A stretch of DNA of 64,000 nt, taken from contig CBDHFN010000003.1 in NCBI GenBank assembly GCA_965262605.1, positions 1,105,416 to 1,169,415 of the forward strand. Direction: 5' to 3'. The notes under the pieces were generated by a model. That model saw only the letters and a list, made by a program, of their open reading frames with translations, was not told the origin of the DNA and did not search any database. This document shows, in pieces, positions 13,257-61,325 of the stretch. Position 1 is the stretch's first letter. Each line of letters starts with the position of its first letter. The position numbers and the translations under genes are program-made. Source of the stretch: Alphaproteobacteria bacterium (GTDB lineage: Bacteria; Pseudomonadota; Alphaproteobacteria; JASGCL01).

Positions 13257-14423
13257 TTATGTTCTTTGAATCGTATAATTGCTTCTGAACGGCAACATGG
13301 TAATATTATCGGCAAATTTGTCAGAAATGTTATTTTGGCAATCTTGATATTGAGGTTTTGATTGAATTGCAAGATGCCAAAAATGTTGAGCAAGAATATC
13401 ATTGCCTTGCCATTGCTTGGCAATCGCGTAGTTATTGTATAAAGCAGCATCAATTTCGTTAGTTAATATCATGTTAAGTTTTTCATTGGCTAAAATCGGC
13501 AATCCCAAATTCAAGTAATTAACACCCATCGCGAAATGCGATAAATAAAATAAATCGCGCTGATAGCCTTGATGCACAAGCTTATCAATATCAGGTATTT
13601 TAGATAATTCATGCAAAATTTCGTTTGATTCGTGAAAATACCCGCAAAACTGCTTAAATGAACTTAAAATCCATAATTGCATCGGTTTAGGAATCATTGA
13701 TTGGCTTAATGTGTTTTTAACTTTATCAAAAGGTAATAATCGGTAATTATGGGTTAAATTACGCTTAATTAACGGAAATTTTGATGAAATTGAGCCGGGT
13801 TGATTGCGATATTCGTATAAAAAATCATCGCAATATGAAATTTTTGCATGATTTAAAATTGCTTGCAATTTAAAAAAATAATCCTCGCCAGAAAGAGAAT
13901 AGGGTGAAAATGGATATTTTCTGGCAAATTCCGTATTAAATCCATGGCAAATGGCGGTCGGTTGCCAATGGCGTTCAAATTCAAAATAAATACCATGGGG
14001 TTGTTTTATAAAATCCGCAATTTTAAAAGCCGAAATTGATTGATTGGCAATATCATTAATGGTAAAATTAGGGTAAATTAAATCGCATTCTTGTTCGGCA
14101 AAGATTTGCAAATAAGTTTCAGCCGCATGGGCGGGTAAAATATCATCACTATCAAGCCACATACCATATTTAGTTTGAATTTGATTAATCGCATATTGCC
14201 GCAAATGCCCCAATGAAACCCGTGTTGGAATTTTTTCAATGGTGCAATTGTGAAAATTACAATCGCGCACGATTTTCAATGTATCATCGGAACTTTGGTC
14301 GTCAATGATTAATATTTTTGCGACATTATTAGCAAAAGCCGATAATATGCTTTCTTTGATGGTTTTTTCGGCATTGCGCGCCACCATACATATCGTCATA
14401 TCATGGTGAATATTTTTCGTCAT
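13257..14423 (-). CDS. family-2 glycosyltransferase with C-terminal extension
   Basis: GT2 N-domain (ICMVARNAEKTI...ILIIDDQSSDDT...DSDD) followed by about 150 aa of helical repeat-like sequence. Confidence 0.7.
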   Translation of the reverse strand: MTKNIHHDMTICMVARNAEKTIKESILSAFANNVAKILIIDDQSSDDTLKIVRDCNFHNCTIEKIPTRVSLGHLRQYAINQIQTKYGMWLDSDDILPAHAAETYLQIFAEQECDLIYPNFTINDIANQSISAFKIADFIKQPHGIYFEFERHWQPTAICHGFNTEFARKYPFSPYSLSGEDYFFKLQAILNHAKISYCDDFLYEYRNQPGSISSKFPLIKRNLTHNYRLLPFDKVKNTLSQSMIPKPMQLWILSSFKQFCGYFHESNEILHELSKIPDIDKLVHQGYQRDLFYLSHFAMGVNYLNLGLPILANEKLNMILTNEIDAALYNNYAIAKQWQGNDILAQHFWHLAIQSKPQYQDCQNNISDKFADNITMLPFRSNYTIQRT

Positions 14424-16504
14424 TCTTTCAAATGCACAAACATGGCGGTAATATCATCGCTTTGGTCGTGTCCATTTACAAATTCTTCAATGGCGTGCAT
14501 CATAAAATTCATATTTTCGGCAACACCTTTGTTAAAATCAGTATTGTTTAGCACATTAAGCACGCGCGCTTCCCCAAATAATTCTTCGTTTTTGTTAAAT
14601 GCCTCGGTTACCCCATCAGTGAATAAGAATAATCGGTCGCCTTTATTAAATGGAATAGTAATTTGGCTATATTCAATGTCTGGCATGATAGCCGTCACTA
14701 AGTCACCCGTTGATTGCAAAAATTCAATATCCTTGCCGTTATTGCGGATAATTGCAGGCGGGTTATGCCCGGCATTACAATATTCAAATGTGCCATTTTT
14801 AAAATCTATAATGCCATAAAATAAGGTGACAAAAAAGTTATCTTGGTTATTCGCGGCTAATAAATTGTTGGATTTTTGCACGGTTTCTGCGGCAGTCGCG
14901 CAATTTTGCGCAAAAACTTGCAGCACGGTTTTAGAAACCATCATAAATAATGCCGATGGCACACCTTTGTCCGAGACATCGCCAACTAAGAATCCTAGGC
15001 GATTATCATCAATCATAAAATAATCATAAAAATCACCACCCACGGCTTTTGAAGGCTTTAACAGAGCTTGTAATTCAATTTTTTCATGGTTAAAGCTTGC
15101 GGCAGGAACATAAGAGAGCTGCACTCTTCTTGCTATATCAAGCTCCTTTTGTATAGCCATAAATCGCGTTTGCGTGGCAAGTGCCTCTTTTAATTCGTCA
15201 ATCACTTCATTTAATTTTGATTGTTTTGATATTAAGCTTGTGCCTAATTTGCGCAAAGTCAAAGCAAGCGAGCCAAGTTCGTTGTTTTTTTGATGGTCAT
15301 CAGGCGAATTAATGTTTTTTTCGTTTAAGTTATGAAAATGAAAACTTAACTCCATTTTATCAGTTTGGTCTAAAACATCGCTTAGCTTGAAAATTTCTTC
15401 CTTAATAATTTTTTCGGTTCTTAATCGTTGCTTGACGCGCGAACGGCGCACTAACCAAAGATCTAAAAGCTGCTCACGCAGAATTTCAATGGCATTAAGC
15501 ATTTTATTAATTTCTGGAGTTTTAATATTACTGGTAATAACATGCGACGCATCGCCCCTTGAAAGATTTTCCAATACATTTGTGCAAATTTCCAAAGGTT
15601 GCAATGATTTATACATAATATATCGGACAAACCAAAGGCATAAAAACATAATTAAGATAAAACTACCAGCATATGTATATTGCAAATATAAAATGTCTTT
15701 GCTATTTTCAGTAGTGTCTTTTAATAAAACTAAATATGTTTTTTGATTGTTAAATACCTTGTCCATGGGAATTGTCGTGGCTGTATAAGTATAATTGCCG
15801 TCTTTTAGGTCAATCAATCGGTGGTCGTTGTCAATTATAATGGAATTGGCAATGTTTTTCCATACTTGCGTATCAATGCCTTCAATAATTCCACCATTGC
15901 GATTAACAATATAAACATGAGATTGCGTTTGATTCGCCAGCAATTCCAAAATGCTAACGACTGATTCCGCAATAACACCAACCCCAACAACTTCATAATT
16001 TTTTTCATTAATTATGGGAAATATATAAGTTAAAAATAAATGGCGGTTTTCATTATAGCCAAAACCATATTCCGCGCTTTTTTGATTGAGAACTTTTTCA
16101 ATTAATTTCTCGCTTACCGGGCTTATCGGGTTAAGATTGGACGAAGAACGATATTCAATTTTTCGTTCCAAATTAAAAATTTCAATGAATTTCTTGCCAT
16201 GGTTCAAATCATTTTCTAATATAGATTTAGAAAATAATTCATTGATTTTTATGCTTTTATTGGTATCAGTATCATTGGTTAGAATTTTAGCAACTTCTTT
16301 ACCTAATTTATTAATAATTTGAATGTTAGCGTCAAGCTTGTTATTGGTAATTCTTCGCCATATTTGATTTTTATCCGAAACTATAGTTTCAGTGAATTTA
16401 TTTTTAAATAAATTTTCTTGGTAATTAAACATCAGATGATTTGCACCACTAAGGCTTATAATCATGAACATAAATACGATAGTGATTTTATTCGTAATGG
16501 TCAT
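14420..16504 (-). CDS. membrane sensor with periplasmic domain, HAMP and C-terminal PP2C (SpoIIE/RsbU-type) serine phosphatase
   Basis: Two TM helices flank a roughly 250-aa periplasmic domain; HAMP-like segment; C-terminal PPM motifs (GDFYDY...VGDVSDKGVPSALFM...FTDGVTEA...DDIT). Confidence 0.75.
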   Translation of the reverse strand: MTITNKITIVFMFMIISLSGANHLMFNYQENLFKNKFTETIVSDKNQIWRRITNNKLDANIQIINKLGKEVAKILTNDTDTNKSIKINELFSKSILENDLNHGKKFIEIFNLERKIEYRSSSNLNPISPVSEKLIEKVLNQKSAEYGFGYNENRHLFLTYIFPIINEKNYEVVGVGVIAESVVSILELLANQTQSHVYIVNRNGGIIEGIDTQVWKNIANSIIIDNDHRLIDLKDGNYTYTATTIPMDKVFNNQKTYLVLLKDTTENSKDILYLQYTYAGSFILIMFLCLWFVRYIMYKSLQPLEICTNVLENLSRGDASHVITSNIKTPEINKMLNAIEILREQLLDLWLVRRSRVKQRLRTEKIIKEEIFKLSDVLDQTDKMELSFHFHNLNEKNINSPDDHQKNNELGSLALTLRKLGTSLISKQSKLNEVIDELKEALATQTRFMAIQKELDIARRVQLSYVPAASFNHEKIELQALLKPSKAVGGDFYDYFMIDDNRLGFLVGDVSDKGVPSALFMMVSKTVLQVFAQNCATAAETVQKSNNLLAANNQDNFFVTLFYGIIDFKNGTFEYCNAGHNPPAIIRNNGKDIEFLQSTGDLVTAIMPDIEYSQITIPFNKGDRLFLFTDGVTEAFNKNEELFGEARVLNVLNNTDFNKGVAENMNFMMHAIEEFVNGHDQSDDITAMFVHLKE

Positions 16505-17514
16505 GGCAAATATCCAACTATCTTAAATTGCTTTAATTGCGTGTATGAAGGATATTCATTCAATGCTTTAACAGCTTTAATATTTAGGGTGGCGAAATAT
16601 TCACTTGGGTTATAAAATTTAATGCTTTGGGGCGGGATTTGCCGAAATAAAATATCTTCGGTAAGTTTGCCCGCCGATTTACCAATACCCGTTAAATTGG
16701 AAACAATGCCAAATAAAGCTTTGCCTTCAAGCAACGGCGTTTCATAGGTGCTGAATACTGGAATTTTTTGTAATGTCGCAAAATGTGTAAATTTTGCTTG
16801 ATTATCAATGATGAATTTATCGGTGCCTAAATAAATTACATCAACATTATTTATTTTTAACTCCTCAAAAATTTGCTCCATTGAAAATAAAGATGGTTTG
16901 CCGTTAATGTCTTGCCCAATTTTTGCCTCATGAAAATTAATATTTTGTTGCCGAAGTTTTGTGATTAATTCGGTTTTATTAAAAACTGAAATAGGGTCAT
17001 TGGGGTTATAAACTACGCCGACTTTGGTAAATTTTTTAAAATCAAATAAACTGCTTAATTGCAAATCAATGGGGGCAAAATTGCTAATTCCAACGATGTT
17101 TCGTTCGGAACTTAAATATGACGCAATAATGCCATACTCCACCGAATAAGGTAAATTTACAAAAATACCGGGAATATTGGTGATAAATTTGTCCGATTGA
17201 TTTTTGTAATCACTAATTGTGCCAAAAATTAATTTAGTCGCCTCCGCACCATTTGTATAAACAAAATCAGGGTTTAAAGATTTGATAATATTAACTAAAT
17301 TTGATGGGTTTTGTTGATAATCTCTTAACGAATATTGCGTAATTTTAGTCGCAATTCTTCGTAAATTTAAGTAATTTTCAAATCCCTTTTCAATATGCGT
17401 GGGTAAGTCTGGAATGACTTGGACGATGATAAATGGATCGTTAATATCGCCTTTTTTTGCCCAAGATAAATTAGGCAAATATACTAACGCAAGAATTAAT
17501 ATAAATTTAAACAT
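16501..17514 (-). CDS. periplasmic binding protein of the ABC_sub_bind/COG2984 family (no cognate permease or ATPase adjacent)
   Basis: Signal peptide MFKFILILALVYLPNLSWA; two-lobed binding-protein pattern. Confidence 0.55.
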   Translation of the reverse strand: MFKFILILALVYLPNLSWAKKGDINDPFIIVQVIPDLPTHIEKGFENYLNLRRIATKITQYSLRDYQQNPSNLVNIIKSLNPDFVYTNGAEATKLIFGTISDYKNQSDKFITNIPGIFVNLPYSVEYGIIASYLSSERNIVGISNFAPIDLQLSSLFDFKKFTKVGVVYNPNDPISVFNKTELITKLRQQNINFHEAKIGQDINGKPSLFSMEQIFEELKINNVDVIYLGTDKFIIDNQAKFTHFATLQKIPVFSTYETPLLEGKALFGIVSNLTGIGKSAGKLTEDILFRQIPPQSIKFYNPSEYFATLNIKAVKALNEYPSYTQLKQFKIVGYLP

Positions 17515-19582
17515 GAGCCACCTTGAAATGCCGATTGGTAAATAATAACCAAATTATCATCATACTTAAACAAATTAATAGGGTAATTAAGAAATTATTA
17601 ATTGTTGCAAAATCATAAAACAGCCCGCTTATTAAAACACAAATGATGGACATGCTATAAAAAGTTTTGGATTTTATGATGACGCATGCTTGGATTTTTT
17701 CTGGATTATCTTTGCATATTTTCATGATGGTTTTATTAAAATCATTGCTTAAAATCGTATAGCTTACGCCCCATAAAAATACAGCATAATAAATATACGA
17801 ATTGTGAAATAAAATTAAAATAATACCAATCATAATTGCCAAAATGCCGATAATAAATCGGTTGGCGTTTTGCAATTTATTCCATGAATTTAAATTTTGT
17901 ATATTTTTGAAACAAGCAAATCCTAAGGCGTATAAGCAAAAACATAAACCGATTTGCGTAAAACTTTGGCTGGTTTTGAATAAATATAACGGCATAAAAA
18001 ACAACATTAATGAATAGCTTATCATCTTAATAGGCATTTCTACGCTTAACAACATAGAATAAATTTGGAATTTTTCATATTTGCTTAAAATATTTTTGGT
18101 GCGCAAAAATATGTTGATATTATTGATTTTGATGGTTGGCAAATCAATAAAAATTAAATAAATAATTGCAAATAAAAATATTCCGCTCATAATAATAAAA
18201 ACACTATTCATGGATATATTATCGGCAATAATTCCCCCCAATAATGGCGAAATAGAAAATGCCATAATAATGTATTTTTTATATGAAAAATTATGGTTAT
18301 ATGGATTAATTTCTGAATTATTAATATATTGCATTATTGTTGAAATAATGATTCCAAAGCTTAAACCCATAAAAACTCTAATCAAGATAATATAAAATAA
18401 ATTATTTGCATAATAAAGAATTACACAAGAAGCAAGCAAGGCGAACAAGGAGCATATTAATATAGATTTTGGCGAATATCGCGCATATAAAATTTGCGTG
18501 TATTGTTGCCCAATAGTTTTCATGATTATGAAACCGATAAACATGATTGCGATTGCGCTGCCTTCATGAATTTGCCAATTTAATTGGCTGGGATTAATTA
18601 TAAATGTTGGCAATATACCAGCCATTAAACCAAAACCTGCAAAAATTAAAAACAATGGAATAATGAAAGTTTCTAATGAAAATAATTTTTCGGGTATTTC
18701 ATGACCAAGCTTGCTTGTTTTAATTTTTTCATTCATCTCGTCAAGTAAATTTGTTAAGGCAATACCCTTTTCGGGATCAATTTGCGATTCAACCGCTTCG
18801 TTAGTTTCTTGAATTATATCAATAAAATATTCATTCTTGTTTTTAACAAATTGATTAATTTGCTGGCTAAATTTACCAATTTCATCGGTTTGATTAATAA
18901 ATAAATATCGCGAATAATTGCCATTTTTTAATCGTTCAATAAAATTCAAAATAAACGAGATATTATTAATAATTTTGGAATTAATTGCCCAAAATGTAAA
19001 GCAAACTGAAAGCCACACGCTGATGAATATAATAAAAATTAACTCAAAACCTATTTGTTCTAAAATATAACTGAAAAAATTATCTTTTAAATAAATTTTA
19101 ACTTCGCCTTCTTTATTTTCGGTGGAATAATAATCAAAAACAAAATTTGGTTTATTTTGAAAATTAAATTGTTCGTTTTTTTGCACGAATTGTTTGATGA
19201 TTTCATCGTCAGCATTCGTGATGGCGATGGCATAAAATGTTGGATTTTTTGCAAAATAATTGATGATTTCTTGGTCAAATCCCTTGATTTTACTGATGTC
19301 AAGCCCGTAATAAGCATATTTTGATATATCATTGGAGATAGCAACCCCAGTAATTTGGGCATTATTTTTGATGGTTGTTTCAATTTGATTGACCACAATT
19401 GTGTATGAAAATAAAAAAACAAGAAATATTAACAGCGTGCAAATTACGGCTAATAAAATCTTGATTTTTTTATATGCGATTGCCAATATATCCCGTGACT
19501 TATCGTCTTTTAAAAAATCAATATCATTTTTGGCAAGCGGTAATAAATTTAAGCCATTTAAAAAAGCATGGAATTTTATCAT
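17507..19582 (-). CDS. membrane protein: sensor-like N-terminus (TM-periplasmic-TM-HAMP) fused to a roughly 12-TM MFS-like transporter domain
   Basis: 691 aa; HAMP-like helix pair after the second TM; C-terminal 400 aa of repeated TM helices with MFS-like loops. Confidence 0.5.
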   Translation of the reverse strand: MIKFHAFLNGLNLLPLAKNDIDFLKDDKSRDILAIAYKKIKILLAVICTLLIFLVFLFSYTIVVNQIETTIKNNAQITGVAISNDISKYAYYGLDISKIKGFDQEIINYFAKNPTFYAIAITNADDEIIKQFVQKNEQFNFQNKPNFVFDYYSTENKEGEVKIYLKDNFFSYILEQIGFELIFIIFISVWLSVCFTFWAINSKIINNISFILNFIERLKNGNYSRYLFINQTDEIGKFSQQINQFVKNKNEYFIDIIQETNEAVESQIDPEKGIALTNLLDEMNEKIKTSKLGHEIPEKLFSLETFIIPLFLIFAGFGLMAGILPTFIINPSQLNWQIHEGSAIAIMFIGFIIMKTIGQQYTQILYARYSPKSILICSLFALLASCVILYYANNLFYIILIRVFMGLSFGIIISTIMQYINNSEINPYNHNFSYKKYIIMAFSISPLLGGIIADNISMNSVFIIMSGIFLFAIIYLIFIDLPTIKINNINIFLRTKNILSKYEKFQIYSMLLSVEMPIKMISYSLMLFFMPLYLFKTSQSFTQIGLCFCLYALGFACFKNIQNLNSWNKLQNANRFIIGILAIMIGIILILFHNSYIYYAVFLWGVSYTILSNDFNKTIMKICKDNPEKIQACVIIKSKTFYSMSIICVLISGLFYDFATINNFLITLLICLSMMIIWLLFTNRHFKVAHV

Positions 19583-20349
19583 GATGAATTATCCGCAAAA
19601 TCTATGGCAAGCATTTTGTTGCGCCTATCCTTCATAAAAATTTCATGCGCCTCAAGTTTTTTATTAGTTTCTTCGTTAAATTCATGATATTCGCGGTTTA
19701 ATTTTTTATTATTGAGCAAATAAAAGCTGTTCGCCTGTTTGTTAATGCGTTGGATAGCGCCCGCAAAAAAATTATTGGAAAAATAAAAACTTAACATCAC
19801 AATAAAGATGATGATAATCATAAGAAAGATCGTTATTTTGTAAGTAATTTCCATAATTTTACCATTGTAAATATTTTGCGGATAAGACGCAAGAAGCACA
19901 CCAGCAAAATTCCCAGTATCGTCCTTTAATGTAATGCCAACATAATTCGTTGTATTGTTAGAAAATTTTGGAGTAATTTCATATTTAATTTTTGCAAGCC
20001 ATTCTTCTGGAATTTTTTCATTGATAAATGAAGTGTCGGTTGAATATATTGTGATTCCTTCGTTATTGATAATATCTATAGTTTGCACATCAACTAATTG
20101 CACTGATAAAGCATCAATCATATTGGCGATATTCGGGGTTTTATCCAATGATCCACCCGTGTTAAGCCATATTTGAAAATTATTATGGATTGATGATAAA
20201 TATACTAAATAATTTTCTTCAACGAATTTTTGTTCTAATTTTTCGTATTTTTTGGTCAAAACAACACCATAAATCATTAACCCAAAAATTAATGGCAAAG
20301 CAATAATAATTGCGATTTTATGGCTTATTTTATCAAAAATTTTATTCAT
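19579..20349 (-). CDS. membrane sensor-like protein lacking an output domain (TM, 150-aa periplasmic domain, TM, short coiled-coil tail)
   Basis: 256 aa, topology inferred from hydrophobic segments; first gene of the four-gene unit. Confidence 0.45.
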   Translation of the reverse strand: MNKIFDKISHKIAIIIALPLIFGLMIYGVVLTKKYEKLEQKFVEENYLVYLSSIHNNFQIWLNTGGSLDKTPNIANMIDALSVQLVDVQTIDIINNEGITIYSTDTSFINEKIPEEWLAKIKYEITPKFSNNTTNYVGITLKDDTGNFAGVLLASYPQNIYNGKIMEITYKITIFLMIIIIFIVMLSFYFSNNFFAGAIQRINKQANSFYLLNNKKLNREYHEFNEETNKKLEAHEIFMKDRRNKMLAIDFADNSS

Positions 20350-27104: not shown

Positions 27105-27295
27105 AATTGAGTGTATGGTTTATTTTAATGTTATTTTTCGTAAGTTTAATTTTATATATAAACATATATATAAAATTAGAGTGGAAATAAATGTTTAGGT
27201 ATTATTTTTTGCCAAAATTCCAACGATTAATAAAAAAAGTCGCTGAATGGGATAATTTTTGGTATAAGGCGCAACGCAACCAGATAAGAAAAATT

Positions 27296-29503
27296 ATGGT
27301 ATCAAACAATCTCAATTTTAGCTTGTCTGTTATATCTTTAAGTTTTTTGCTGGCTTGTTCTAATTCAAAAAAATCAGAAAATATCACATTAATTGAAGAA
27401 TTATCAACTTTTGCGACAAATAATCAAGCCACAATAATTAAAGATTTTACCACTATTAAAGAGGGGCAAGCGGATGCCGTGGGTATTTCTAATAATCAAA
27501 TTGCATCTGGTGTTAAATTAAATGCCGCCGAATTAAAAAATGGTGTGATTTTCACGGGAACTATTTCAAAATCACTTAATTCTGGCGAAAATGTCAAGGT
27601 AACGCTGGGCGGTGTAAGTGTCATTGCGGTGGTTTCAGGCACAATTTGGAGTGCCGTTTTTGATTCGGATATGGTTAATATACCGAATAATTTAAATGCA
27701 GATTTAACTGCCGAAATTGTCAATATATCAGGACAGCAAGGAGTCATATTAAGCGCAACCACAATTAATAAAATTATTATTGATCAAATTGCACCAAATG
27801 CCCCAAGCCTAAAATTAAGCGCAGGTATTTCAGACGGCGCAACCCAAAGTGAAGCAATAGCCCAAACTGGTGTCGTTTTGGTTGCGGGTGAATCGGGCGC
27901 AACAATTGTCATTACGATTACGAATAATACTCAAATCATCACAAAAACTATATTATCAGCGGGCAATAATGAAACGCCCATAGTTTTAACCCAATCCGAT
28001 ATAACCACGCTTGGAATTGGTTTAATATCGGTAACTGCTGTGGCAACTGATGTATCTGGCAATCCGAGTTTACCTGCGAGCATAAGTTTTAATTTGACTA
28101 GTATTGTCCCGTTAAGTGCGAATCCCCCGATTATAAATGCTGTAAACATTAATGCGAATGGAAATTTAGACATAATTTTTGATGAAGCGACAATTGGCGA
28201 ACTAAGCGCGGCTCTGCCCAATGATATTGTTGCCCAAAATCCGACTATGACAACAGCAACCATCAAAATTGCGGGTTTAATAACAAATAATATTAACGGA
28301 TTTAATTTAACCGATTCTACGGGTAATGAAACGCATTATTTGAAACAATCCACGGCAACCGCCGATAATGATATTATAATTGGCACTTCGGGCAATGATA
28401 ATTCATTATTGGGTGGTGCTGGACGGGATATTATTTTGGGCGGTGCGGGCAATGATACTATTGATGGTGGTGCAGGGGTTGATTTTGTATTTGGGCAATC
28501 CGGGAATGATATTTTAGTATTTGATGCAACTGATGCTAAAATTGATGGCGGCGTGGGTGATGATACATTAAAAGTAAATAATGCAGCGACTTTAACCATA
28601 AATAGTGGTAATTTAATAAATATAGAGGATGTTGATGCGTCAGCGTCAAATGCTATCGTTAATATTACCGGTGATAATGGGGCAAATATTATTATTGGTG
28701 GTCATAATAATGATATTTTAAATGGTGCTGATGGCGCCGATCAATTATCAGGTGGCGATGGAAATGATAGTATTAACGGGGGGAATGATGCGGATAATAT
28801 TTCGGGCGGCGGCGGCGATGATATATTAAATGGCGGTAATGGTGGAGATAATTTAATCGCCGAAGATGGCAATGATACGATAAATGGCGGTAATGGCGGT
28901 GATAATTTAAATGGTGGCTTGGGTATGGATATTTTAACGGGTGGCGCGGGTGATGATAATTTAAATGGCGGTAATGGTAATGATATATTTAATCTTGATT
29001 TATCGCTCGGCATTGATACTATCGCCGATTTTGGTGGGTCAAGCGGATTAGAAACTGATATTATGCAAATATCAGGTTTATCACCATCAAGTGCCCCCAT
29101 AGTTGCGCAAAATTCAGGGGTTATTGGCAATATTTCCCAAGCATTTACAGAAAATGATACGGATAATATAAGCATCGCCAATGCAAAATTTTATATTATT
29201 GATGTTGCGGGAGTTTTAGATTTTGATGGTATTGGCAATAATGGCGGAAATTTTGTCAATATGGACGGGGCGGGGATTATGGCGAATTTTGTGGCATCTA
29301 ATGGTAAGGCGTTTAATGCAAATGTTATTGCCAATGACAAAGCCGTGTTTTTATTCGCCAATGGTTCGGGTGAAGCGCAATTATGGTTATTTAACTCGGG
29401 TGATTCATCGGTTGATGCAACTGATTTTACTAAAATTGCGAGTTTATTAGATTCATCATTTGACTTTCGTGCATTTAATCATCAGCATATTGAATTTATT
29501 TGA
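27296..29503 (+). CDS. large surface lipoprotein with Ig-like repeats and RTX-type (hemolysin-type) calcium-binding nonapeptide repeats
   Basis: Start at the ATG at 27296 gives the lipobox LLAC. Central repeated beta-rich modules. C-terminal run of GGxGxDx[LIF] repeats (GGAGNDTIDGGAGVD..., GGNGGDNL..., GGAGDDNLNGGNGNDIF). Confidence 0.7.
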   Translation: MVSNNLNFSLSVISLSFLLACSNSKKSENITLIEELSTFATNNQATIIKDFTTIKEGQADAVGISNNQIASGVKLNAAELKNGVIFTGTISKSLNSGENVKVTLGGVSVIAVVSGTIWSAVFDSDMVNIPNNLNADLTAEIVNISGQQGVILSATTINKIIIDQIAPNAPSLKLSAGISDGATQSEAIAQTGVVLVAGESGATIVITITNNTQIITKTILSAGNNETPIVLTQSDITTLGIGLISVTAVATDVSGNPSLPASISFNLTSIVPLSANPPIINAVNINANGNLDIIFDEATIGELSAALPNDIVAQNPTMTTATIKIAGLITNNINGFNLTDSTGNETHYLKQSTATADNDIIIGTSGNDNSLLGGAGRDIILGGAGNDTIDGGAGVDFVFGQSGNDILVFDATDAKIDGGVGDDTLKVNNAATLTINSGNLINIEDVDASASNAIVNITGDNGANIIIGGHNNDILNGADGADQLSGGDGNDSINGGNDADNISGGGGDDILNGGNGGDNLIAEDGNDTINGGNGGDNLNGGLGMDILTGGAGDDNLNGGNGNDIFNLDLSLGIDTIADFGGSSGLETDIMQISGLSPSSAPIVAQNSGVIGNISQAFTENDTDNISIANAKFYIIDVAGVLDFDGIGNNGGNFVNMDGAGIMANFVASNGKAFNANVIANDKAVFLFANGSGEAQLWLFNSGDSSVDATDFTKIASLLDSSFDFRAFNHQHIEFI
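28330..29010 (+). repeat. array of RTX nonapeptide (GGxGxDxUx) coding repeats
   Basis: More than 20 degenerate 27-bp coding repeats; this also creates a spurious proline-rich ORF on the minus strand. Confidence 0.6.
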
Positions 29504-36887: not shown

Positions 36888-38408
36888 ATGGCAAAGAAAA
36901 AAATTGATTTTTTATTTGTAAATCCAAATAGCTCGCATCAGTCATATCAAGTTCTTGCAAATAAATTTAATGCAATTGAACCGCCGACTTGGGCGGTTTT
37001 ACTGGCGACAAGCCTTAATTCTAAGGGTTTTAAGTCAGAAATTTTAGATTGCGATGCTTTAAGACTTTCTTTGAATCAATCTTTAGAAGAAATAATCGCT
37101 TATAATCCGCGTATGGTTGTTATGATGCTTTATGGGCAAAACCCCAATGCAGGCACAAGCTCAATGATTCAAGCAATACCATTAGCTGAATTAATAAAAT
37201 CGCAAAATGCCGATATTAAAATTGTGATGGGTGGTTCGCATTCACAGGCTTTGCCGCGTCAAGTTATTGCGTTTCCATGTGTTGATTTTGTCTTGATAAA
37301 CGAAGGGGTGCAATCGTTATTTGCCCTTGGATTAAGCAATTTAAAAGATAATTTAGAAAATATTCCCAGTATTTTTTATAAATCAGATGGTAAAATTTGC
37401 CATTCTAACCATGCGAGCATTGTGTCATCAAGCGATTTAGATAAAGAATTACCGGGCTATGATTGGTCGCTTTTACCCGATTTAAATACCTATCGCGCGC
37501 ATTATTGGCATAATTTCTTTTCTGATGAAGGGCGTTCGCCTTTTACCGCGATTTATACTTCGCTTGGTTGCCAGTTTGCTTGCAGTTTTTGTATGATAAA
37601 TATTATTAACCGAACAAGTTTTGATGATACCGCCCATGCTGGACATTCATCAGGAATGCGATATTTTTCCCCAGAATTAATGTTGGCTGAATTTGATAAA
37701 TTAGCAAAATTAGGTGTAAAAAACATTCGCTTGTCCGATGAAATGTTTTTTCTTAACCGCAAGCATTATATTCCAATTTTAGAAGCAATTATTCAAAGAA
37801 AATATGATTTTAATATGTGGGCATATGCAAGAGTTGATTCGGTGCGCGAAGACCAATTAGCTTTATTTAGAAAGGCTGGCGTGCGCTGGATTGCGCTTGG
37901 CATTGAAACGGCTAATCAAAATGTCAGGCATGAGATTGAACGCGGAAAATTTAAACAAGTCAATGTGCGTGATATTGTTAAGTTAATTGAATCATATGAT
38001 ATTCATATTGTCAGTAATTTTATTTTTGGCTTGCCGAATGATTCCCTTCAAACAATGCGTGAAACCCTTGATTTAGCCAAGGAATTAAATACCGCGCATG
38101 CAAATTTTTATCCTGCTATGCCATTACCGGGTTCCCCGCTTTATATGCAGGCGTTGCAATCAGGCTGGCAACCATATGAAGATTTAGCAAAATATTCATT
38201 TTTATCCTATGAATCTTTACCTTTGGCAACTGAATTTTGCACGCCCCAAGAAATTTTAACATTTCGCGATAATGCTTGGCATGAATATTTTACTAACCCA
38301 ATTTTTTTAGATAAAATCGGAAAAAGCTTTGGTATGAAAAATAGAAGTAATATTGAAGAAATGACCAAATTAAAATTAAGAAGAAAAATTTTGGAAAATA
38401 ACGCATGA
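36888..38408 (+). CDS. B12-binding-domain radical SAM protein (class B rSAM)
   Basis: N-terminal cobalamin-binding Rossmann-like domain, then CQFACSFC (CxxxCxxC) about 220 aa in. Confidence 0.75.
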   Translation: MAKKKIDFLFVNPNSSHQSYQVLANKFNAIEPPTWAVLLATSLNSKGFKSEILDCDALRLSLNQSLEEIIAYNPRMVVMMLYGQNPNAGTSSMIQAIPLAELIKSQNADIKIVMGGSHSQALPRQVIAFPCVDFVLINEGVQSLFALGLSNLKDNLENIPSIFYKSDGKICHSNHASIVSSSDLDKELPGYDWSLLPDLNTYRAHYWHNFFSDEGRSPFTAIYTSLGCQFACSFCMINIINRTSFDDTAHAGHSSGMRYFSPELMLAEFDKLAKLGVKNIRLSDEMFFLNRKHYIPILEAIIQRKYDFNMWAYARVDSVREDQLALFRKAGVRWIALGIETANQNVRHEIERGKFKQVNVRDIVKLIESYDIHIVSNFIFGLPNDSLQTMRETLDLAKELNTAHANFYPAMPLPGSPLYMQALQSGWQPYEDLAKYSFLSYESLPLATEFCTPQEILTFRDNAWHEYFTNPIFLDKIGKSFGMKNRSNIEEMTKLKLRRKILENNA

Positions 38409-39301
38409 CAAATGATAATTATCATCTTGATAATATTAAAAAATTTGAAAGCAATCAAGCAAAATTAAATTTTTTAAAGGATGTTGCGCTTGGCGAATCG
38501 GGGGTTTTCAATAAATTTGGCAATCATTTTAATATTATAAAATTTGATGAATTTAAATGTAATTTAAAAGAAGTTTTTATCAATGAATTGATAGAGACAA
38601 ATTTGGTTAATGCCACAAATTTAGCCAAAATTAATTTTGATTTGGGCAAATTACACCAAATAATCGCCCAAAATGATCAAATTTTTGACCCTTCGGGCAG
38701 AAATAATTTTATGTCCCAAATTTTTCAATTGACAAAAATCAAAAATGCTTATGCTGATTTTGTTAAAACCACGATTGCGCCGTTAATTGGTGAATTTTTT
38801 TATTTTCAAGACCAGCCAACTATCCGCGTTAATTTTCCATTTCCGGCAAATTATAATAAACGGGCAAATTACCACATTGATTTAATGTTAGGGCATTTGC
38901 CAATTATTTATAATTTTTGGTGGTCGTTAAATAATGTTTATGGTTCAAATAGCCTCTCAGTTGCCGATTATGATTTTTCCATTAATTTATTGAAAAAATA
39001 TGATTGGAATTTTGCTAAATTAGTTTATGACATTGAATTTAATGACGATTTATATAATGAAATTCGCCACCATAGCATTGATTTAAAGCTTAATTTTGGT
39101 GATATTGCTGTATTTAGTCCATTATGTTTGCATGCAACCCAATATAATACAACTGATACGACAAGGGTAAGTTTTGATTGCCGATTTATTTTAAAATCAA
39201 AATATGAACAATTAAATTTAACATATAAAGGGCTTGGTAATAAACAAATGCCGATGCAGCCCGGATATTATTACAATTTAAATCCGATATATACGCCTTA
39301 G
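38405..39301 (+). CDS. PhyH-like Fe(II)/2-oxoglutarate dioxygenase family protein
   Basis: HxD (YHIDLM), a distal His (CLHATQ) and RxS (TRVSFD) in PhyH-like spacing; 4-nt overlap with the rSAM gene. Confidence 0.45.
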   Translation: MTNDNYHLDNIKKFESNQAKLNFLKDVALGESGVFNKFGNHFNIIKFDEFKCNLKEVFINELIETNLVNATNLAKINFDLGKLHQIIAQNDQIFDPSGRNNFMSQIFQLTKIKNAYADFVKTTIAPLIGEFFYFQDQPTIRVNFPFPANYNKRANYHIDLMLGHLPIIYNFWWSLNNVYGSNSLSVADYDFSINLLKKYDWNFAKLVYDIEFNDDLYNEIRHHSIDLKLNFGDIAVFSPLCLHATQYNTTDTTRVSFDCRFILKSKYEQLNLTYKGLGNKQMPMQPGYYYNLNPIYTP

Positions 39302-48212: not shown

Positions 48213-49613
48213 ATGCGGTTACAAGATTTTTTTGATAGTTTGCAATACAGAAATTATATTTTTTCTGAGATAATAATTAATGAAAAAATTGAAATATTTT
48301 ATGATTTATTGCCCGCATTGGAATTATTTGAATCGCAATCATATATTCGTGCATTTAACGAGTTTAATAAGCTTGAAAATCGTTCCAAACTTTATAATCG
48401 CATTAAATATTTTTATTTATTATTATGTAAATCGCAACTTATTATTAATGAAAATGAAATTAATAATATTGTCGCAAATTTTAATAAATTGCACCAAAAT
48501 TATGGCTGTATGGCTTCGTTATTTGAAATTGGGCAATTATTAGCGGCAAGTAATCCAGATGAAGCACTGAAATATTTCGCGTTATATTATGATAATAATT
48601 TAAACATGTTAAGAAATCTTGATTTTAGTGGCACATATCAGCAAACATTGGTTTTTATTGAATGTTATAGTAAATTTGTTGCAGAAAAACCTGATTTTAT
48701 TGACCCACAAAAAATTGGCATCAATGACATATCGGCACAAGAATCTCATTTTGATTTTAGTGATTATTTAATGTTTAACCCATACCCGCACGATAATAAA
48801 GTCGGCGATAGTTATATTTTGGCTTCGTTGTTAAAATATATTAAGGATAAATTCCAAAAGAAAATTATTGTTTTTACGCAAACGAATAAAATCCCAATAT
48901 TTAAATTTTATGATTATATTGATGCGGTTTTGCCGATGGAATCATATCAAAATATTGTATGGCAATTGCCAAAATCCAATAAATTCAAAATTGGGTCTGT
49001 GTTTCATTATCATTATGGATTCGCCCATATTTCCAATACGCCTTCGCCATATTTAAGTGATTTTTTAGCGCGAAAATTAGGCTTAAAAGATATTAACTTC
49101 GTTGCACCATATCAATCCAATTTGGCAATGAAAATTAATGCCTGTAAAATGCTTCATCAGCTTAATTTAACGAAGAATAAAACAATAATTTTTAATAAAT
49201 ATTCCAATACCATAAAGCTTAAAATATTGGGTGATGATTTTTGGATTAATCTTGCTATACAATGCCAAAATCTTGGTTATGAAGTGGTATTTAATGATTC
49301 GCAAGCTTTTCTTGATTTTAAAACTTGTTTTGTGCCATATCAATATTTAGCCGAATTTGCAGAGCTTTGCGGGTGTTTAATAACCGTGCGCACAGGAATT
49401 TGCGATATAATTGCCAATCAGAATCCTGATGGCAAGATGATTATTATCATGAATAATCAACAACAATTCCCAATGGGTTATTTTTCATTAAAATTAATGT
49501 ATAATAATCAAAATATTCTTGAATGCCATGAAAATAATATTGATGAATTGCATCAACAAATTTTTGAATATCTTGACAATAATTTCGCTTTGGGTAATAA
49601 GAAAAACACTTGA
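48213..49613 (+). CDS. hypothetical protein with a helical-repeat N-half and a GT9-like C-half (third paralog of the TPR-GT9 family)
   Basis: V-G-D-S motif (NKVGDSYILASLLKYI) aligned to the G[LF]GD motif of the ORFs at 11635-13191 and 54772-56094. Confidence 0.4.
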   Translation: MRLQDFFDSLQYRNYIFSEIIINEKIEIFYDLLPALELFESQSYIRAFNEFNKLENRSKLYNRIKYFYLLLCKSQLIINENEINNIVANFNKLHQNYGCMASLFEIGQLLAASNPDEALKYFALYYDNNLNMLRNLDFSGTYQQTLVFIECYSKFVAEKPDFIDPQKIGINDISAQESHFDFSDYLMFNPYPHDNKVGDSYILASLLKYIKDKFQKKIIVFTQTNKIPIFKFYDYIDAVLPMESYQNIVWQLPKSNKFKIGSVFHYHYGFAHISNTPSPYLSDFLARKLGLKDINFVAPYQSNLAMKINACKMLHQLNLTKNKTIIFNKYSNTIKLKILGDDFWINLAIQCQNLGYEVVFNDSQAFLDFKTCFVPYQYLAEFAELCGCLITVRTGICDIIANQNPDGKMIIIMNNQQQFPMGYFSLKLMYNNQNILECHENNIDELHQQIFEYLDNNFALGNKKNT

Positions 49614-51918: not shown

Positions 51919-52359
51919 TTATTTTACGGTTATTTTGCGTTGCTCAGTAAAAAGGGCAGGAAAATATGAAATATGATTTTGGTCGGTAATTAATAATTGC
52001 AATATATGCGAACCGGGCGGTAAATCTAACTCATATTCTATTTCGCCATTTCCCAAGTGAATATCTTTTGGAATAAGTTGCGGACCGGGTTTGAACGCAT
52101 CATCATTTTTTATCATGGTTACTATATCTTGCCTGTCATATAAAATATGAAAATGCGACGAACCTTTTTTCTTGGTTGATGCAATATCAAGATTTGTTGC
52201 GGACATTTTGAATTTTACAGGATTCGCAACAACTGAATTTGCCTTAGGTTCGTCCCAAGTAATTGTCGCACCAGCAGGTAATTTTGTGCGTTGCGCATAT
52301 AATGGGCTTAAATTAACTAAAATAAAGCCAATTAGCGATAATATTAAATATTTTTTCAT
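51919..52359 (-). CDS. secreted DUF4399-like protein, tandem paralog A
   Basis: Signal peptide; shared motifs HFHIL, IHLGNG, LPPG and NHI with the adjacent paralog. Confidence 0.55.
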   Translation of the reverse strand: MKKYLILSLIGFILVNLSPLYAQRTKLPAGATITWDEPKANSVVANPVKFKMSATNLDIASTKKKGSSHFHILYDRQDIVTMIKNDDAFKPGPQLIPKDIHLGNGEIEYELDLPPGSHILQLLITDQNHISYFPALFTEQRKITVK

Positions 52360-52826
52360 TTGATTGTTAATTTAATTCTGTCTGATGCAACGATAGGGTA
52401 ATGCGCAATATGATTTAAGTCGCCCAATACTAATTGTAAAAAATATTCACCGGGGGGCAATCGTAAAGAATATTTAAATGACCCGTCGCCTAAATGTATA
52501 TCATCAACATCAAAAATAGGAGGCTGTGATTTTGCAGAATCTTTTTTCACACGGCTTAAATAATCTGGTTTATTGATTAAAATATGAAAATGCGCTTTGT
52601 TTTTAACTTCCTTGGGTCCAATTTCAATGCCCTCAGAATTAAACTGCAACTTAATTTCGGCGCCAGTTAGTAAATTTTCTGAATCTATTACAGCACCATT
52701 AGAAGGAAATTCCCAATAGATTTTTGCGCCCTTTGGCGATAAAGTTCTGTTATATTCTTGGGTATTGGCATAGCCAACAAGTAGTGCTAAACCCATAACA
52801 ATTGCTGTAATTTTCATTATACACAC
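52356..52826 (-). CDS. secreted DUF4399-like protein, tandem paralog B
   Basis: Same motif set (HFHIL, IHLGDG, LPPG, NHI); 4-nt overlap with paralog A. Confidence 0.55.
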   Translation of the reverse strand: MCIMKITAIVMGLALLVGYANTQEYNRTLSPKGAKIYWEFPSNGAVIDSENLLTGAEIKLQFNSEGIEIGPKEVKNKAHFHILINKPDYLSRVKKDSAKSQPPIFDVDDIHLGDGSFKYSLRLPPGEYFLQLVLGDLNHIAHYPIVASDRIKLTIK

Positions 52827-57694: not shown

Positions 57695-58647
57695 AAATAT
57701 CATTAATTATTTCAATATTTGTTGCTTTGGTTTTGGGCATTGGCTTTGGCTATTATCATTATAGCGATTTTTATGCAAAACGAAATATTGATTCGGTCGT
57801 TGTTGATATTGAAAAAGGGGCAACATATAATGATGTTGGCGATATTTTGGCAAAAAATAAAGTAATTGATAATCCAATTGCCTTTAATTATTTGGCGCGA
57901 ATTATTTTTTTTGGTAAAACATTCAAGGCTGGTGAATATGAATTTGGCGGCGAATTATCGCCATTTGAAATTGCATTGAAAATCATCAAGCATCAAGTTA
58001 TTCAATATAATATCACTATCCCTGAGGGGTTTACAGCCAAACAAATCGTTGAAATTCTTTATAAATTACCAAAATTACAAGGCGAAATAGACAAAATTCC
58101 AGACGAAGGCTCGCTTTTTCCAGATACTTGGGTTTATATCAAGGGCGATTCAAGAATGACATTATTAACGCTTATGCAAAAAAAAATGGATAAAGAATTA
58201 GATAAAATTTGGCAAAATAAAGGCGATATTAACCCGATTAAATCCAAAGTAGAGTTGCTTATCTTGGCTTCGTTAATTGAAAAAGAAACTGGCATTGCGT
58301 CAGAACGCCCAATAGTTTCAGGGGTATTTTATAACCGATTGCGCATGAATATGAAATTGCAATCTGACCCAACCACAATTTACCCATTATCAAATTTTAC
58401 GGGCGATTTAAATCGTTATTTAACCAAAAAAGATTTGGAATCAATCAATGAATGGAATACATATACCCGTGAAGGCTTGCCGAAAACTCCTATATGCAAC
58501 CCGTCCTTAGCCGCGATTCAAGCTGCCGCCGACCCAGCAACCCATAAATATTTATTTTTTGTGGCGAACGGCAACCGCGGGCACAGCTTTGCCGAAACTT
58601 ACGCACAACATAAACGAAATGTTGAAGCGTATAGGTTGTTGAATTAA
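57691..58647 (+). CDS. mltG: endolytic murein transglycosylase MltG (YceG-like)
   Basis: N-terminal TM plus YceG domain; follows acpP-fabF in the conserved order. Confidence 0.8.
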   Translation: MKISLIISIFVALVLGIGFGYYHYSDFYAKRNIDSVVVDIEKGATYNDVGDILAKNKVIDNPIAFNYLARIIFFGKTFKAGEYEFGGELSPFEIALKIIKHQVIQYNITIPEGFTAKQIVEILYKLPKLQGEIDKIPDEGSLFPDTWVYIKGDSRMTLLTLMQKKMDKELDKIWQNKGDINPIKSKVELLILASLIEKETGIASERPIVSGVFYNRLRMNMKLQSDPTTIYPLSNFTGDLNRYLTKKDLESINEWNTYTREGLPKTPICNPSLAAIQAAADPATHKYLFFVANGNRGHSFAETYAQHKRNVEAYRLLN

Positions 58648-59441
58648 TATTCAGCGCGGTTTATATATCGCGCATTATAATATTCAGACGCAAATGTTTT
58701 TAATGCTCTTTTATATTCATTGACATCTTTTGTTAATAATACACGCACTAGATAATTTTTTAAAATTTTATATTGCTTCGCAATGTCAATTATAAATTGT
58801 TCAATTAATTTAGAATCATCATATTTGTTAATTGAATTTTTCATTGTTTCAATTAAATATAATGGGCAAATCAGTTCATAACACAATATCAAGGCTGCAT
58901 CTTCTTGTATTTGTAAATGGGTATGTTTTTTGCCTTGAATGAATTTAATCGCTAAATCTGTAATATCCTCTGGGTTTTTCTTATAATTTTCTTCTTCTGC
59001 TATGGCATTAGAAAATTCCTTTACTTCAGTTTTTCCGCTCCATTCTAAATATTTTAACTTATTATCTTTAGATTTGTAATTAATTGCTAAAGCTAAATGC
59101 AATAATTCTTTGAATATAACCATTCGGTATTTGCATATACCTTCGCCATCTTTAATATCTGTTAAACTAGAATTAAAGCAAATTTTTTCGTCATATAAAA
59201 TATATACATCGTAAGTATCATTTTCTTCATTATCGTAGATAAATATATGTCCAGCAACGCCAATATTAACTTTTTTTGTATAAATTTTTGCATTGCAAAT
59301 TTTTGCAAAAATATTTAAAGTGTCCTCGGTATTTAATGGTTTAAATTCATCAATTGATTTATATTTTTCATGATTTAATATGTCAAACTTACCGCTTTTC
59401 GGCGTGAGCAACATACCAAATATCTGTGAAACTTTATTCAT
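58644..59441 (-). CDS. hypothetical protein (265 aa), very AT-rich
   Basis: No family recognised; composition K/N/I/Y-rich, differing from the flanking genes. Confidence 0.5.
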   Translation of the reverse strand: MNKVSQIFGMLLTPKSGKFDILNHEKYKSIDEFKPLNTEDTLNIFAKICNAKIYTKKVNIGVAGHIFIYDNEENDTYDVYILYDEKICFNSSLTDIKDGEGICKYRMVIFKELLHLALAINYKSKDNKLKYLEWSGKTEVKEFSNAIAEEENYKKNPEDITDLAIKFIQGKKHTHLQIQEDAALILCYELICPLYLIETMKNSINKYDDSKLIEQFIIDIAKQYKILKNYLVRVLLTKDVNEYKRALKTFASEYYNARYINRAEY

Positions 59442-59457
59442 AAACTATTCCAGAATA

Positions 59458-59664
59458 TTATTTATCGTGGAATTCTTGTTTAAATGTGCCATTTTCAATG
59501 TCATCAAAAAGTCCATTTAAAGCATTTGCTAGTTTTTGTTCTAATTCTTTGTCGGGTATCTTATTTTCATAGCCATCAGTGTCGCTGAAAATGCCCAAAA
59601 GTCTATAGCCGGGTTTTATACCCCGTTCAACTGCTTTTAAATATTCTGATTTTTCACCTGACAT
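59458..59664 (-). CDS. hypothetical small acidic protein (68 aa) upstream of the 265-aa ORF
   Basis: 16-nt spacing to the next gene; no family recognised. Confidence 0.4.
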   Translation of the reverse strand: MSGEKSEYLKAVERGIKPGYRLLGIFSDTDGYENKIPDKELEQKLANALNGLFDDIENGTFKQEFHDK

Positions 59665-59774
59665 GTAATCCCTTACTGCAATATTAATGCCTAATTAATG
59701 AAAATATAACATATTTTTCTGATAAATCAAGAGAAAAATAACTTAAATGATAAATTATATAAAAAGCAAAAAAC

Positions 59775-59966
59775 TCATATCGGGCAACCGCTTTGCTTGC
59801 ATTTTTCCATCGCATAAGCCTTGCATTTTGGGCATTGCACTAAATCTGTCGGAATTTGGCTTTTCGCATGATTTTTTTTGGCTTTTTTGCGATCATGCGC
59901 AAAATAAAAGAAAAATAATGCGACCGCAGCACCAATAATAATTAAGAATCTTGTTATCCAACCCAT
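59775..59966 (-). CDS. small membrane-anchored zinc-ribbon-like protein (63 aa)
   Basis: One N-terminal TM helix, then CPKC...C..GC; overlaps the 3' end of the methyltransferase gene by 13 nt. Confidence 0.35.
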   Translation of the reverse strand: MGWITRFLIIIGAAVALFFFYFAHDRKKAKKNHAKSQIPTDLVQCPKCKAYAMEKCKQSGCPI

Positions 59967-60673
59967 GGGTTTATGACCTTTGCGTGATGTAATATTGCCA
60001 ATGCTTCTTCTGTAAAGACATGTTCTTCATTATGCAAGCAAATTTTAGGTAAAATTTGAAAATTTGCGGGTTTATTTGGCGAATATCGCCCAATAATTTT
60101 CTTGATAGGTTTGGAATCACCAACAGACAAAGGCAAAATTTGCAAATCACCTTGATTATAAATAGCTTTGATGGCTTGAATATTTTGCATATCATGGTTA
60201 AAATAAATCACGCCATTGGGGTTTAAGCATTGCAAGCATTGATTAAGCCATTCTTGAAATGTAAAGCCAACCGCAAATTTTGCCACCCGCTTTAATTGAT
60301 TGGGCGAAGGAAATGAATCATTATAATAAGGCGGATTAGTCATTATTATGTCGTATTTTTTCTCGCATTTAAAAATATCAGATTGAATTATATTGATAAT
60401 TTTATGTAATTTATTGTCGTGAATATTTTCATGCAATAATTTTGCGTATTGTTCATTAATTTCCCAAGCGTCAATTTTGGCATGAATTTCAAGGTTGTTA
60501 TAAGCAAATGCCAGCGATATTGCACCAACGCCCGCCCCAAAATCAGCTATATTGCCATTTATGGCGGGAATTGTCGCGGCTAAAATTACGGATTCGCTGG
60601 AAATGCGGTATGAATCTTTCCATTGTTTGACAGAGATTCTGCCGCCCAAAATTGAATCAATTGTTATAGACAT
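59954..60673 (-). CDS. tRNA (adenine37-N6)-methyltransferase TrmN6/YfiC-like
   Basis: NPPY motif (MTNPPYY) and SAM motif (DFGAGVGAISL); start set 13 nt after the upstream stop. Confidence 0.7.
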   Translation of the reverse strand: MSITIDSILGGRISVKQWKDSYRISSESVILAATIPAINGNIADFGAGVGAISLAFAYNNLEIHAKIDAWEINEQYAKLLHENIHDNKLHKIINIIQSDIFKCEKKYDIIMTNPPYYNDSFPSPNQLKRVAKFAVGFTFQEWLNQCLQCLNPNGVIYFNHDMQNIQAIKAIYNQGDLQILPLSVGDSKPIKKIIGRYSPNKPANFQILPKICLHNEEHVFTEEALAILHHAKVINPWVG

Positions 60674-61325
60674 TATGGATAAATTGCCCAATATTATCGC
60701 TGATATTGTTAATTTTTGGCACAAGATTCATATCAAGATAACCCGAAGACTTAATTAAAATCGTGTGCATACCAATTTCATGGGGATATTGCAAATTAAG
60801 CGCAATATCTTCAACCATTACTGATTTTTTTGGGTCAAATTTCATTTTTGCAAATATTCTGTCAAAGGCTTCGGGTGCGGGTTTTGGCGTGTATAAAGCA
60901 TCGCAAACATCGTAAATCCCATCAAAAACTTCCAATGGAATTAGCAATTGTTTTAAGACACTTTTGGCGTGGCTTACCGAACCATTGGTAAAAATAATCT
61001 TGCGGGCATTCATATTTTCCAACGCTGATTTCAGTAATAAATCAGGCTTAATGTAAGAATAATCAATATTATGCACAAAATCCATATAATCAGTCGGATT
61101 AACTTCATGATTCGCCATTAATCCAGCTAAGGTTGTGCCGTATTTAGCATAATATTCTTTTTGGAATTTTTTGGCTTGATAAGCATCAACGGATAATTGC
61201 GTCATGATAAATTCCCCCATTAATTTTTCAATTTGGGGGAATAAATCGCATGATTCGGGGTAAAGAGTATTATCTAAATCAAAAACCCATAATTCCTTTT
61301 GGCGCAAATTTTCATTCATTAACAA
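60657..61325 (-). CDS. HAD-superfamily hydrolase (pyrimidine 5'-nucleotidase-like, subfamily IA)
   Basis: Motif I DLDNTLY and a C-terminal HAD pattern. Confidence 0.7.
   Translation of the reverse strand: MLMNENLRQKELWVFDLDNTLYPESCDLFPQIEKLMGEFIMTQLSVDAYQAKKFQKEYYAKYGTTLAGLMANHEVNPTDYMDFVHNIDYSYIKPDLLLKSALENMNARKIIFTNGSVSHAKSVLKQLLIPLEVFDGIYDVCDALYTPKPAPEAFDRIFAKMKFDPKKSVMVEDIALNLQYPHEIGMHTILIKSSGYLDMNLVPKINNISDNIGQFIHNVYNN

Follow-up and report, generated by a model that had tools for sequence, protein, structure and literature searches.

Two adjacent open reading frames (ORFs) of an alphaproteobacterium, orf68 and orf265, form a genuine conserved two-gene module. They lie on the minus strand of the 64,000-nucleotide stretch of DNA analysed here (the window; GenBank assembly GCA_965262605.1, contig CBDHFN010000003.1, positions 1,105,416 to 1,169,415), between mltG and a methyltransferase gene. 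Comparison with a homologous locus from a second organism shows, from the way in which the two sequences have diverged, that both are genuine genes, that they evolve under purifying selection and that they have been kept together as a pair. Alignment also shows that hallmark residues of the orf265 product coincide colinearly with those of the ImmA/IrrE proteins (MEROPS family M78), of which it may be a very remote derivative; by any accepted sequence criterion, it is not a member of the corresponding Pfam family, PF06114. By analogy with characterized ImmA/IrrE systems, we tentatively favour a reading in which the locus would encode a co-transcribed two-protein switch of the toxin–antitoxin (TA) or anti-regulator type, with a zincin-like, possibly non-catalytic orf265 product that binds the orf68 product and processes or sequesters it. 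An earlier reading of this DNA, made from the letters alone and referred to here as the original prediction, had described an AT-rich insert with the layout of a toxin–immunity, abortive-infection or defence pair. Neither 'insert' nor 'defence' is demonstrated.

A conserved pair of genes

The two ORFs are placed exactly as the original prediction had them, on the minus strand and separated by 16 nt, and the first product is, as it had said, a small acidic protein (Table 1). An exhaustive HMMER search of 1.84 billion representatives yielded a single true homologue of orf265, the 267-aa protein P0004 (39% identity, E = 4e-41), which is encoded on a 1136-bp metagenomic Logan contig (L081) from SRR25073304, a sample for which no literature was found. 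Directly upstream of P0004, at a distance of 8 nt, this contig carries a 69-aa ORF homologous to orf68 (45% identity, E = 2e-16). The proposed unit of a small acidic protein followed by a larger one is therefore conserved in a second organism, which fits a functionally coupled module, for example a TA-like one. A housekeeping homologue of the larger protein, which the original prediction had named as an outcome that would refute it, did not appear: orf265 is not a conserved housekeeping gene.

The orf265 family thus comprises two members in about 15 billion proteins. A word-indexed index of 5.8 billion protein clusters returned only the query itself for both proteins, and a profile search added nothing. 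Neither family alignment recovered relatives from metagenome or viral contigs, tblastn gave only chance matches against phages (E of 4–7) and none against plasmids, and the window holds no paralogues of the pair. It is an extremely rare gene pair, confined to a very poorly sampled lineage. A Sushi-repeat protein, P0005, had appeared as a homologue of orf265 (E = 3e-12) and was discarded as an artefact, its score being summed over 9 repeats of which a single one reaches 12 bits (E = 1e4).

The divergence between the two loci has the form expected of coding sequence. The large genes differ at 0.44, 0.33 and 0.64 of first, second and third codon positions, respectively, and the small genes at 0.40, 0.33 and 0.52; within the large gene, 43 of the 97 codons that specify identical residues differ synonymously. 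The intact pair in a second organism and this ordering of the positions (3 > 1 > 2) together indicate that the genes are real and selected. AT-rich DNA and a lack of family assignment might suggest non-functional chance ORFs or decaying remnants in an AT-rich spacer. This explanation is so improbable as to be effectively refuted: the second organism has both ORFs in intact form, at equal length and with 39–46% protein identity, their synonymous sites are saturated, the 3 > 1 > 2 pattern holds and motif blocks are conserved.

Several features bear on how the pair would be expressed. The short spacers in both loci, 16 nt in the window and 8 nt in L081, suggest co-transcription. Upstream of orf68, within positions 59665–59774, a sigma-70-like promoter match is followed by a Shine–Dalgarno-like element, and the pair in L081 is likewise preceded by a promoter-like TTGACT / TATCTT (L081 positions 1–73); promoter-like sites are not enriched in this region over shuffled sequence. 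The −10 element of L081 ends just 6 nt before the ATG, which may leave its transcript leaderless; in the window copy, the leader is ~37 nt long and contains the Shine–Dalgarno sequence. On the strand of the pair, a 63-aa ORF precedes orf68 at a distance of 110 nt, and no terminator-like site was found between the two, which makes read-through into the pair possible. At the other end, the stop codons of orf265 and the convergent mltG overlap and no terminator-like site was found between these genes; opposing transcripts would therefore run into each other. Both products look soluble, with no signal peptide or transmembrane (TM) segment.

A faint likeness of orf265 to the ImmA/IrrE family

The two proteins fall into no recognizable family, as the original prediction had noted: neither has a match in Pfam, NCBIfam, PHROGs, PADLOC or PDB, and no known toxin or antitoxin family was matched in Pfam, NCBIfam or PADLOC. 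No helix–turn–helix (HTH) or other Pfam domain was found in the orf68 product or its homologue at E ≤ 10, and a PDB profile search was empty. For orf265, a match of residues 66–139 to a cofilin/ADF-H structure (PDB 9fp8, E = 0.011) weakened to E = 0.3 with a two-sequence profile and was taken as chance.

The comparison with M78 was prompted by the blocks that are invariant in orf265 and P0004 (AGH..IY.N; ILYD..ICF.S; GIC.YR.V.FKEL.HL..AI.Y; EDxALxLxxELxCPxYL; and A..YKI), and was then tested against an alignment of 12 proteins that are annotated as ImmA/IrrE in phage and plasmid records. The resulting reference profile is valid, as it finds CapP (PDB 7t5t), IrrE (3dte) and two more M78 structures in the PDB at E values from 1e-16 to 4e-9. 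Aligned greedily to these references with hhalign, orf265 is colinear over every M78 hallmark block, in the order of a G-containing strand, an I-x-x-N-S strand, R-x4-[K]ExxH on a long helix, an E-x-x-A-x-x-L-x-x-x-L-[IL]-x-P helix and A-x-x-Y-x-I. Seven of the 12 invariant or near-invariant M78 columns (G, E, H, E, A, L and P) coincide with residues that are invariant in both family members. The best of 150 column shuffles had 4 such matches, the best of 120 block shuffles had 6 and the reversed alignment had 1; none of these 270 shuffles reached 7.

The strongest local resemblance is in the helix that carries the third zinc ligand of ImmA/IrrE proteins, a Glu (E..A..LL.P, the top local hhalign match). 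This Glu helix (EDAALILCYELICP and EDTALYLFLELLCP) keeps E, A, L, L/I and P. When the motif is loosened to E..A..h...L[LIVM].P, a search of 4974 six-frame ORFs (1.12 M residues) finds it in 14, which are exactly the 12 M78 references and the two family members. The order of secondary-structure elements predicted for orf265 in low-confidence AlphaFold2 (AF2) models, which runs from a helix through three strands and a long helix to further helices, is compatible with a zincin. Six residues, C49, C88, C103, C192, H65 and H115 (58866–59297, minus strand), are invariant in both members despite an overall identity of only 38%. Two of them, C103 and C192, lie on either side of the two zincin-like motifs and could provide another metal site.

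Several observations weigh against descent from M78. First, profile methods do not detect it: PF06114 gives no match at E ≤ 10 for orf265, P0004 or core fragments. Against the 12 M78 members, hhalign returns a probability of 0.4% (P = 0.16), a score that 18 of 200 column shuffles reach and that falls to 15.1 when four M78 sequences from the PDB are added; core compared with core gives E = 0.029, and an IrrE fragment used as a positive control gives a probability of 98%. With the reference hidden Markov model, orf265 scores 2.6 bits, reached by 50 of 2000 shuffles, and P0004 scores −0.1 bits. Second, the family signature is incomplete. HExxH is replaced by KELLH in orf265 and KELIH in P0004, with the Glu and the second His kept; KExxH and the Glu helix are 65 residues apart, compared with ~30 in M78; and the Asn and the Phe/Ala of the E..AN.FA motif are absent from the Glu helix. 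Third, the gene directly upstream is annotated as HTH in 8 of 9 reference loci, and orf68 lacks an HTH. Fourth, the AF2 models are too poor to serve as structures, with predicted local distance difference test (pLDDT) scores of 42 and 36, and fold searches gave generic helical bundles only. Finally, the hallmark statistic and the pattern search were both chosen after the motifs had been seen and are therefore suggestive rather than proof, and 6% of the block shuffles arrive at 6 of the 12 hallmark matches. The family is itself extremely divergent, with <15% identity between ImmA and IrrE, most of it near HEXXH (PMC6868357).

The same shuffling result, together with the absence of significant profile similarity in Pfam, NCBIfam, PHROGs, PADLOC and PDB, speaks for a different explanation: orf265 may have a novel fold unrelated to M78, in which the motifs arose by chance, and the pair may serve any coupled lineage-specific role, perhaps that of a secreted or host-directed protein and its small chaperone, or a niche-specific accessory function in an alphaproteobacterium with a streamlined, low-GC genome. 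We consider this somewhat unlikely. Chance motifs would have to account for seven of the 12 M78 invariants being colinear and invariant in both members, a result matched by 0 of 270 shuffles. A secreted or host-directed role is at odds with the lack of a signal peptide, TM segment or secretion-system neighbourhood.

The invariant residues H65, D84 and C103 raised a further idea, that orf265 could be a CE-clan cysteine peptidase akin to Ulp1 and YopJ, with His65 on a strand, Asp84 19 residues further on and Cys103 at the start of the long helix as its catalytic residues. By eye, the order of strand, hairpin and strand followed by a helix resembles the His-Asp...Cys order of that clan. The Asp-to-Cys spacing is ~45–50 residues in Ulp1, YopJ and adenain, but Asp84 and Cys103 are 19 residues apart; moreover, there is no Gln or Asn ~6 residues before Cys103, and Pfam C48, C55, C5 and C57 give no match at E ≤ 10. 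With the spacing wrong, the Gln missing and no Pfam match, we set this idea aside as very improbable.

Base composition and genomic setting

The original prediction had called both genes much richer in A/T, and their products in Lys, Asn, Ile and Tyr, than the flanking genes. Judged against the 59 genes of the window (mean GC content 0.370, s.d. 0.044; mean GC content at third codon positions (GC3) 0.335, s.d. 0.051), this holds for orf265, which has the second lowest GC of the 59 (GC 0.262 and GC3 0.207, z of about −2.5 for each) and a fraction of Phe, Tyr, Met, Ile, Asn and Lys (FYMINK) of 0.45; a GC content this low is seen in just 1.2% of 800-bp windows. It does not hold for orf68, whose GC of 0.338 lies within 1 s.d. 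of the window mean (FYMINK 0.35). Nor is the pair compositionally distinctive, because four other ORFs of the window are equally AT-rich and lack a Pfam match (Table 1). Orphans of this kind are thus a general feature of the genome and suggest that lineage-specific AT-rich genes, with which orf265 agrees in composition, are spread throughout it. This also favours the explanation by an unrelated fold. The large gene of L081 has a GC content of 0.29 and its small partner 0.41; because the homologue of orf265 is GC-poor on its own contig too, the AT bias is, at least in part, inherent in the family and not a sign of recent import.

The surroundings of the pair consist of housekeeping genes. On one side lie acpP, fabF and mltG (YceG, E = 6e-79), and on the other are a gene for a small methyltransferase with an NPPY motif, a 63-aa membrane/Cys-rich ORF, a pyrimidine 5′-nucleotidase gene, a glutamine-synthetase-like gene and lipB, with dapB, tyrS and a prephenate dehydrogenase gene farther out. 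Elsewhere, the window has genes for CarA, a molybdenum hydroxylase, transporters and an RTX protein, and the host looks like a metabolically competent low-GC alphaproteobacterium. Such broad biosynthesis (CarA, DapB, prephenate dehydrogenase and the molybdenum enzyme) argues against an obligate effector-rich endosymbiont, and with it against a host-directed role for the pair.

According to the original prediction, the pair interrupts the usual synteny from the fab cluster to tmk/holB. That order is a gammaproteobacterial pattern and belongs to the wrong clade. Among 80 MltG loci from GTDB species representatives (best MltG identity 41–52%), the order acpP–fabF–mltG is kept in all alphaproteobacterial loci listed, and in 6 of the 10 loci inspected mltG is followed by a YicC-like gene, with a gmk-like gene next in three of them (both recognized by eye). 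The genes downstream of mltG in the window occur in none of the fetched mltG loci, which are too distant (MltG 41–52%) for an insertion to be either shown or excluded. Nor does the locus itself bear marks of one: there are no meaningful flanking direct repeats around the pair, no recombinase, integrase or transposase gene was found near it, the sole tRNA of the window is at 2900–2972, and the stops of orf265 and mltG overlap.

These observations bear directly on the proposal of a horizontally inserted anti-phage defence, abortive-infection or toxin–immunity pair, which we regard as distinctly unlikely. In its favour are the two-gene layout with a small acidic protein first, the conservation of the pair, the low GC and GC3 of orf265 and the position at a synteny break after mltG. 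Yet zero PADLOC-DB 2.0 families match orf68 or orf265 at E ≤ 1, or P0004 at E ≤ 0.01, and the locus, with its housekeeping neighbours, is not a defence island. Phages, plasmids, viral contigs and metagenome scans gave no relatives; a family of two members in ~15 billion proteins, at 39% identity, is unlike mobile defence genes; and, as set out above, the marks of insertion are missing and the low GC of orf265 is at least partly a family trait.

The sole PADLOC match near the pair is that of the methyltransferase to mad2 (E = 2e-17), which covers the catalytic core only. It was rejected as defence context, because HemK and TrmN score the same ~60 bits on the same core. The TTG start listed for this gene, 'trmN6-like' in the original prediction, overlaps the upstream nucleotidase gene by 68 nt, and its true start is therefore probably an internal ATG. 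The match of the 63-aa ORF to the PP0621 family is weak (25.6 bits against a cut-off of 45). Further features of the window are listed in Table 1.

Table 1. Positions in the window of the gene pair, its motifs and signals, and other features
Feature	Position	Strand	Description
orf68	59458..59664	−	First gene of the pair; 68 aa, acidic (pI 4.9), soluble-looking; listed ORF
orf265	58644..59441	−	Second gene of the pair; 265 aa, 31 kDa, pI 7.0, AT-rich; listed ORF
Spacer orf68/orf265	59442..59457	−	16 nt, compared with 8 nt in L081
Sigma-70-like promoter match	59703..59730	−	TTGATT, 16-nt spacer, TG-TATATT; 5′ of orf68; consensus match only
Shine–Dalgarno-like AAGGGA	59669..59674	−	5 nt 5′ of the orf68 ATG; direct reading of the sequence
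Convergent 3′ overlap of mltG (+) and orf265 (−)	58644..58647		TTAA on the plus strand; the two TAA stops share two bases
K111-E-L-L-H115 of orf265	59097..59111	−	K-E-L-x-H invariant in both members; aligns with HExxH, with Lys for the first His
E180-D-A-A-L-I-L-C-Y-E-L-I-C-P193 of orf265	58863..58904	−	Aligns with the ImmA/IrrE helix E-x-x-A-N-x-F-A-x-x-L-L-M-P (third zinc ligand Glu)
63-aa ORF	59775-59966	−	Overlaps the methyltransferase end by 13 nt; N-terminal hydrophobic segment, Cys-rich C terminus CPKC...C...C
Methyltransferase	59954-60724	−	NPPY motif; ~60 bits alike against HemK, TrmN (cut-off 350) and PADLOC mad2
AT-rich ORF	10402-11247	−	This and the next three ORFs: GC 0.25–0.29, FYMINK 0.44–0.48, no Pfam match
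AT-rich ORF	19579-20349	−	
AT-rich ORF	38405-39301	+	
AT-rich ORF	48213-49613	+	
RTX protein	27191-29503	+	770 aa; calcium-binding nonapeptide repeats (E = 4e-24); metabolic surroundings
DUF4399 tandem paralogues	51919-52359 and 52356-52826	−	Overlapping; beside dapB
Overlapping gene run	14420-16504, 16501-17514 and 17507-19582	−	694-aa SpoIIE-type phosphatase; ABC substrate-binding-like; AT-rich 691-aa protein with MFS domain in its C-terminal half

A possible two-protein switch

In the switch that we tentatively favour, orf68 and orf265 would be transcribed together as an autonomous two-gene module. The orf265 product would be a 31-kDa alpha/beta protein with a putative zincin-type fold, possibly a non-catalytic pseudo-protease in view of the Lys that takes the place of the first zinc His. 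It would bind the co-encoded small acidic protein, which is presumably cytoplasmic, and then either process or sequester it. The proposal takes ImmA/ImmR, IrrE/DdrO and the non-proteolytic Rir/Crh as its models, and is consistent with the short spacer and the upstream promoter-like site in both loci, the soluble appearance of both proteins and the acidic product of the first gene.

The likeness to ImmA/ImmR of ICEBs1 (Bacillus subtilis) and IrrE/DdrO (Deinococcus) extends to gene arrangement, which in each case consists of adjacent co-oriented genes with the small partner first. Within the larger protein, orf265 shares with ImmA/IrrE (COG2856/PF06114) the colinear G-strand, I..NS, R-x4-[H/K]ExxH, E..A......L[LI].P and A..[FY].[VI], and differs from it by the Lys at the first zinc ligand and by ~35 extra residues between the metal-binding helices. 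The partner in those systems is an XRE repressor, whereas here it is a 68-aa acidic non-HTH protein, and the pair in the window lies outside any mobile-element or stress-regulon context.

A precedent for inactivation of a partner by binding comes from phage TP-J34 of Streptococcus thermophilus, in which the COG2856 protein Rir inactivates Crh without cleaving it (PMC6868357). By this analogy, the KExxH variant would likely act in a non-cleaving, Rir-like mode. The parallel is incomplete: Rir keeps HExxH, its partner is an HTH repressor and the system is phage-encoded.

Two further groups share the bicistronic layout. The TA-like modules of Xre and COG2856 proteins, such as the Brucella abortus zinc metalloprotease (ZnMP) BAB1_0270 with its HTH-Xre partner (PMC10538038), also have a zincin-like second gene, and CapP of the CapP/CapH pair (named 'CapP toxin' in PDB 7t5t) is retrieved by the M78 reference profile at E = 1e-16. 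Both of these have a bona fide PF06114 protein with HExxH and an HTH partner, unlike orf265, which is not a detectable member. Type II TA systems resemble the pair in having a small acidic first gene and a larger second one, in the short spacers (16 and 8 nt) and in conservation as a pair. They differ in that no TA family is matched, that the second protein is neutral (pI 6.3–7.0) and large for a toxin, and that the pair family is neither multi-copy nor widespread.

A bolder version of the proposal is that the pair represents a previously unrecognized class of switch, a TA-like or stress/defence module, limited to a hardly sampled alphaproteobacterial lineage, in which a KExxH derivative of the zincin fold, possibly with His65 or Cys103/Cys192 in place of its lost first metal ligand, would act on a dedicated small acidic partner that does not bind DNA and not on an XRE repressor. 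We consider this unlikely. At most, the pair is a strongly deviant variant of an ImmA/IrrE protein and its partner; otherwise, it is an ordinary lineage-specific orphan pair.

Were the M78 link true, switches of the ImmA/IrrE type would not be bound to HTH repressors or to the canonical HExxH motif, such regulators and TA-like modules could be sought more widely, and orf265 would provide a natural KExxH variant with which to study catalytic versus binding-only action. If the link is false, the locus adds one more lineage-specific orphan pair, and serves mainly to illustrate that the AT-rich orphans of this genome are genuine genes under selection rather than artefacts of annotation. In either case, the defence-island reading of the locus should not be propagated without experiments.

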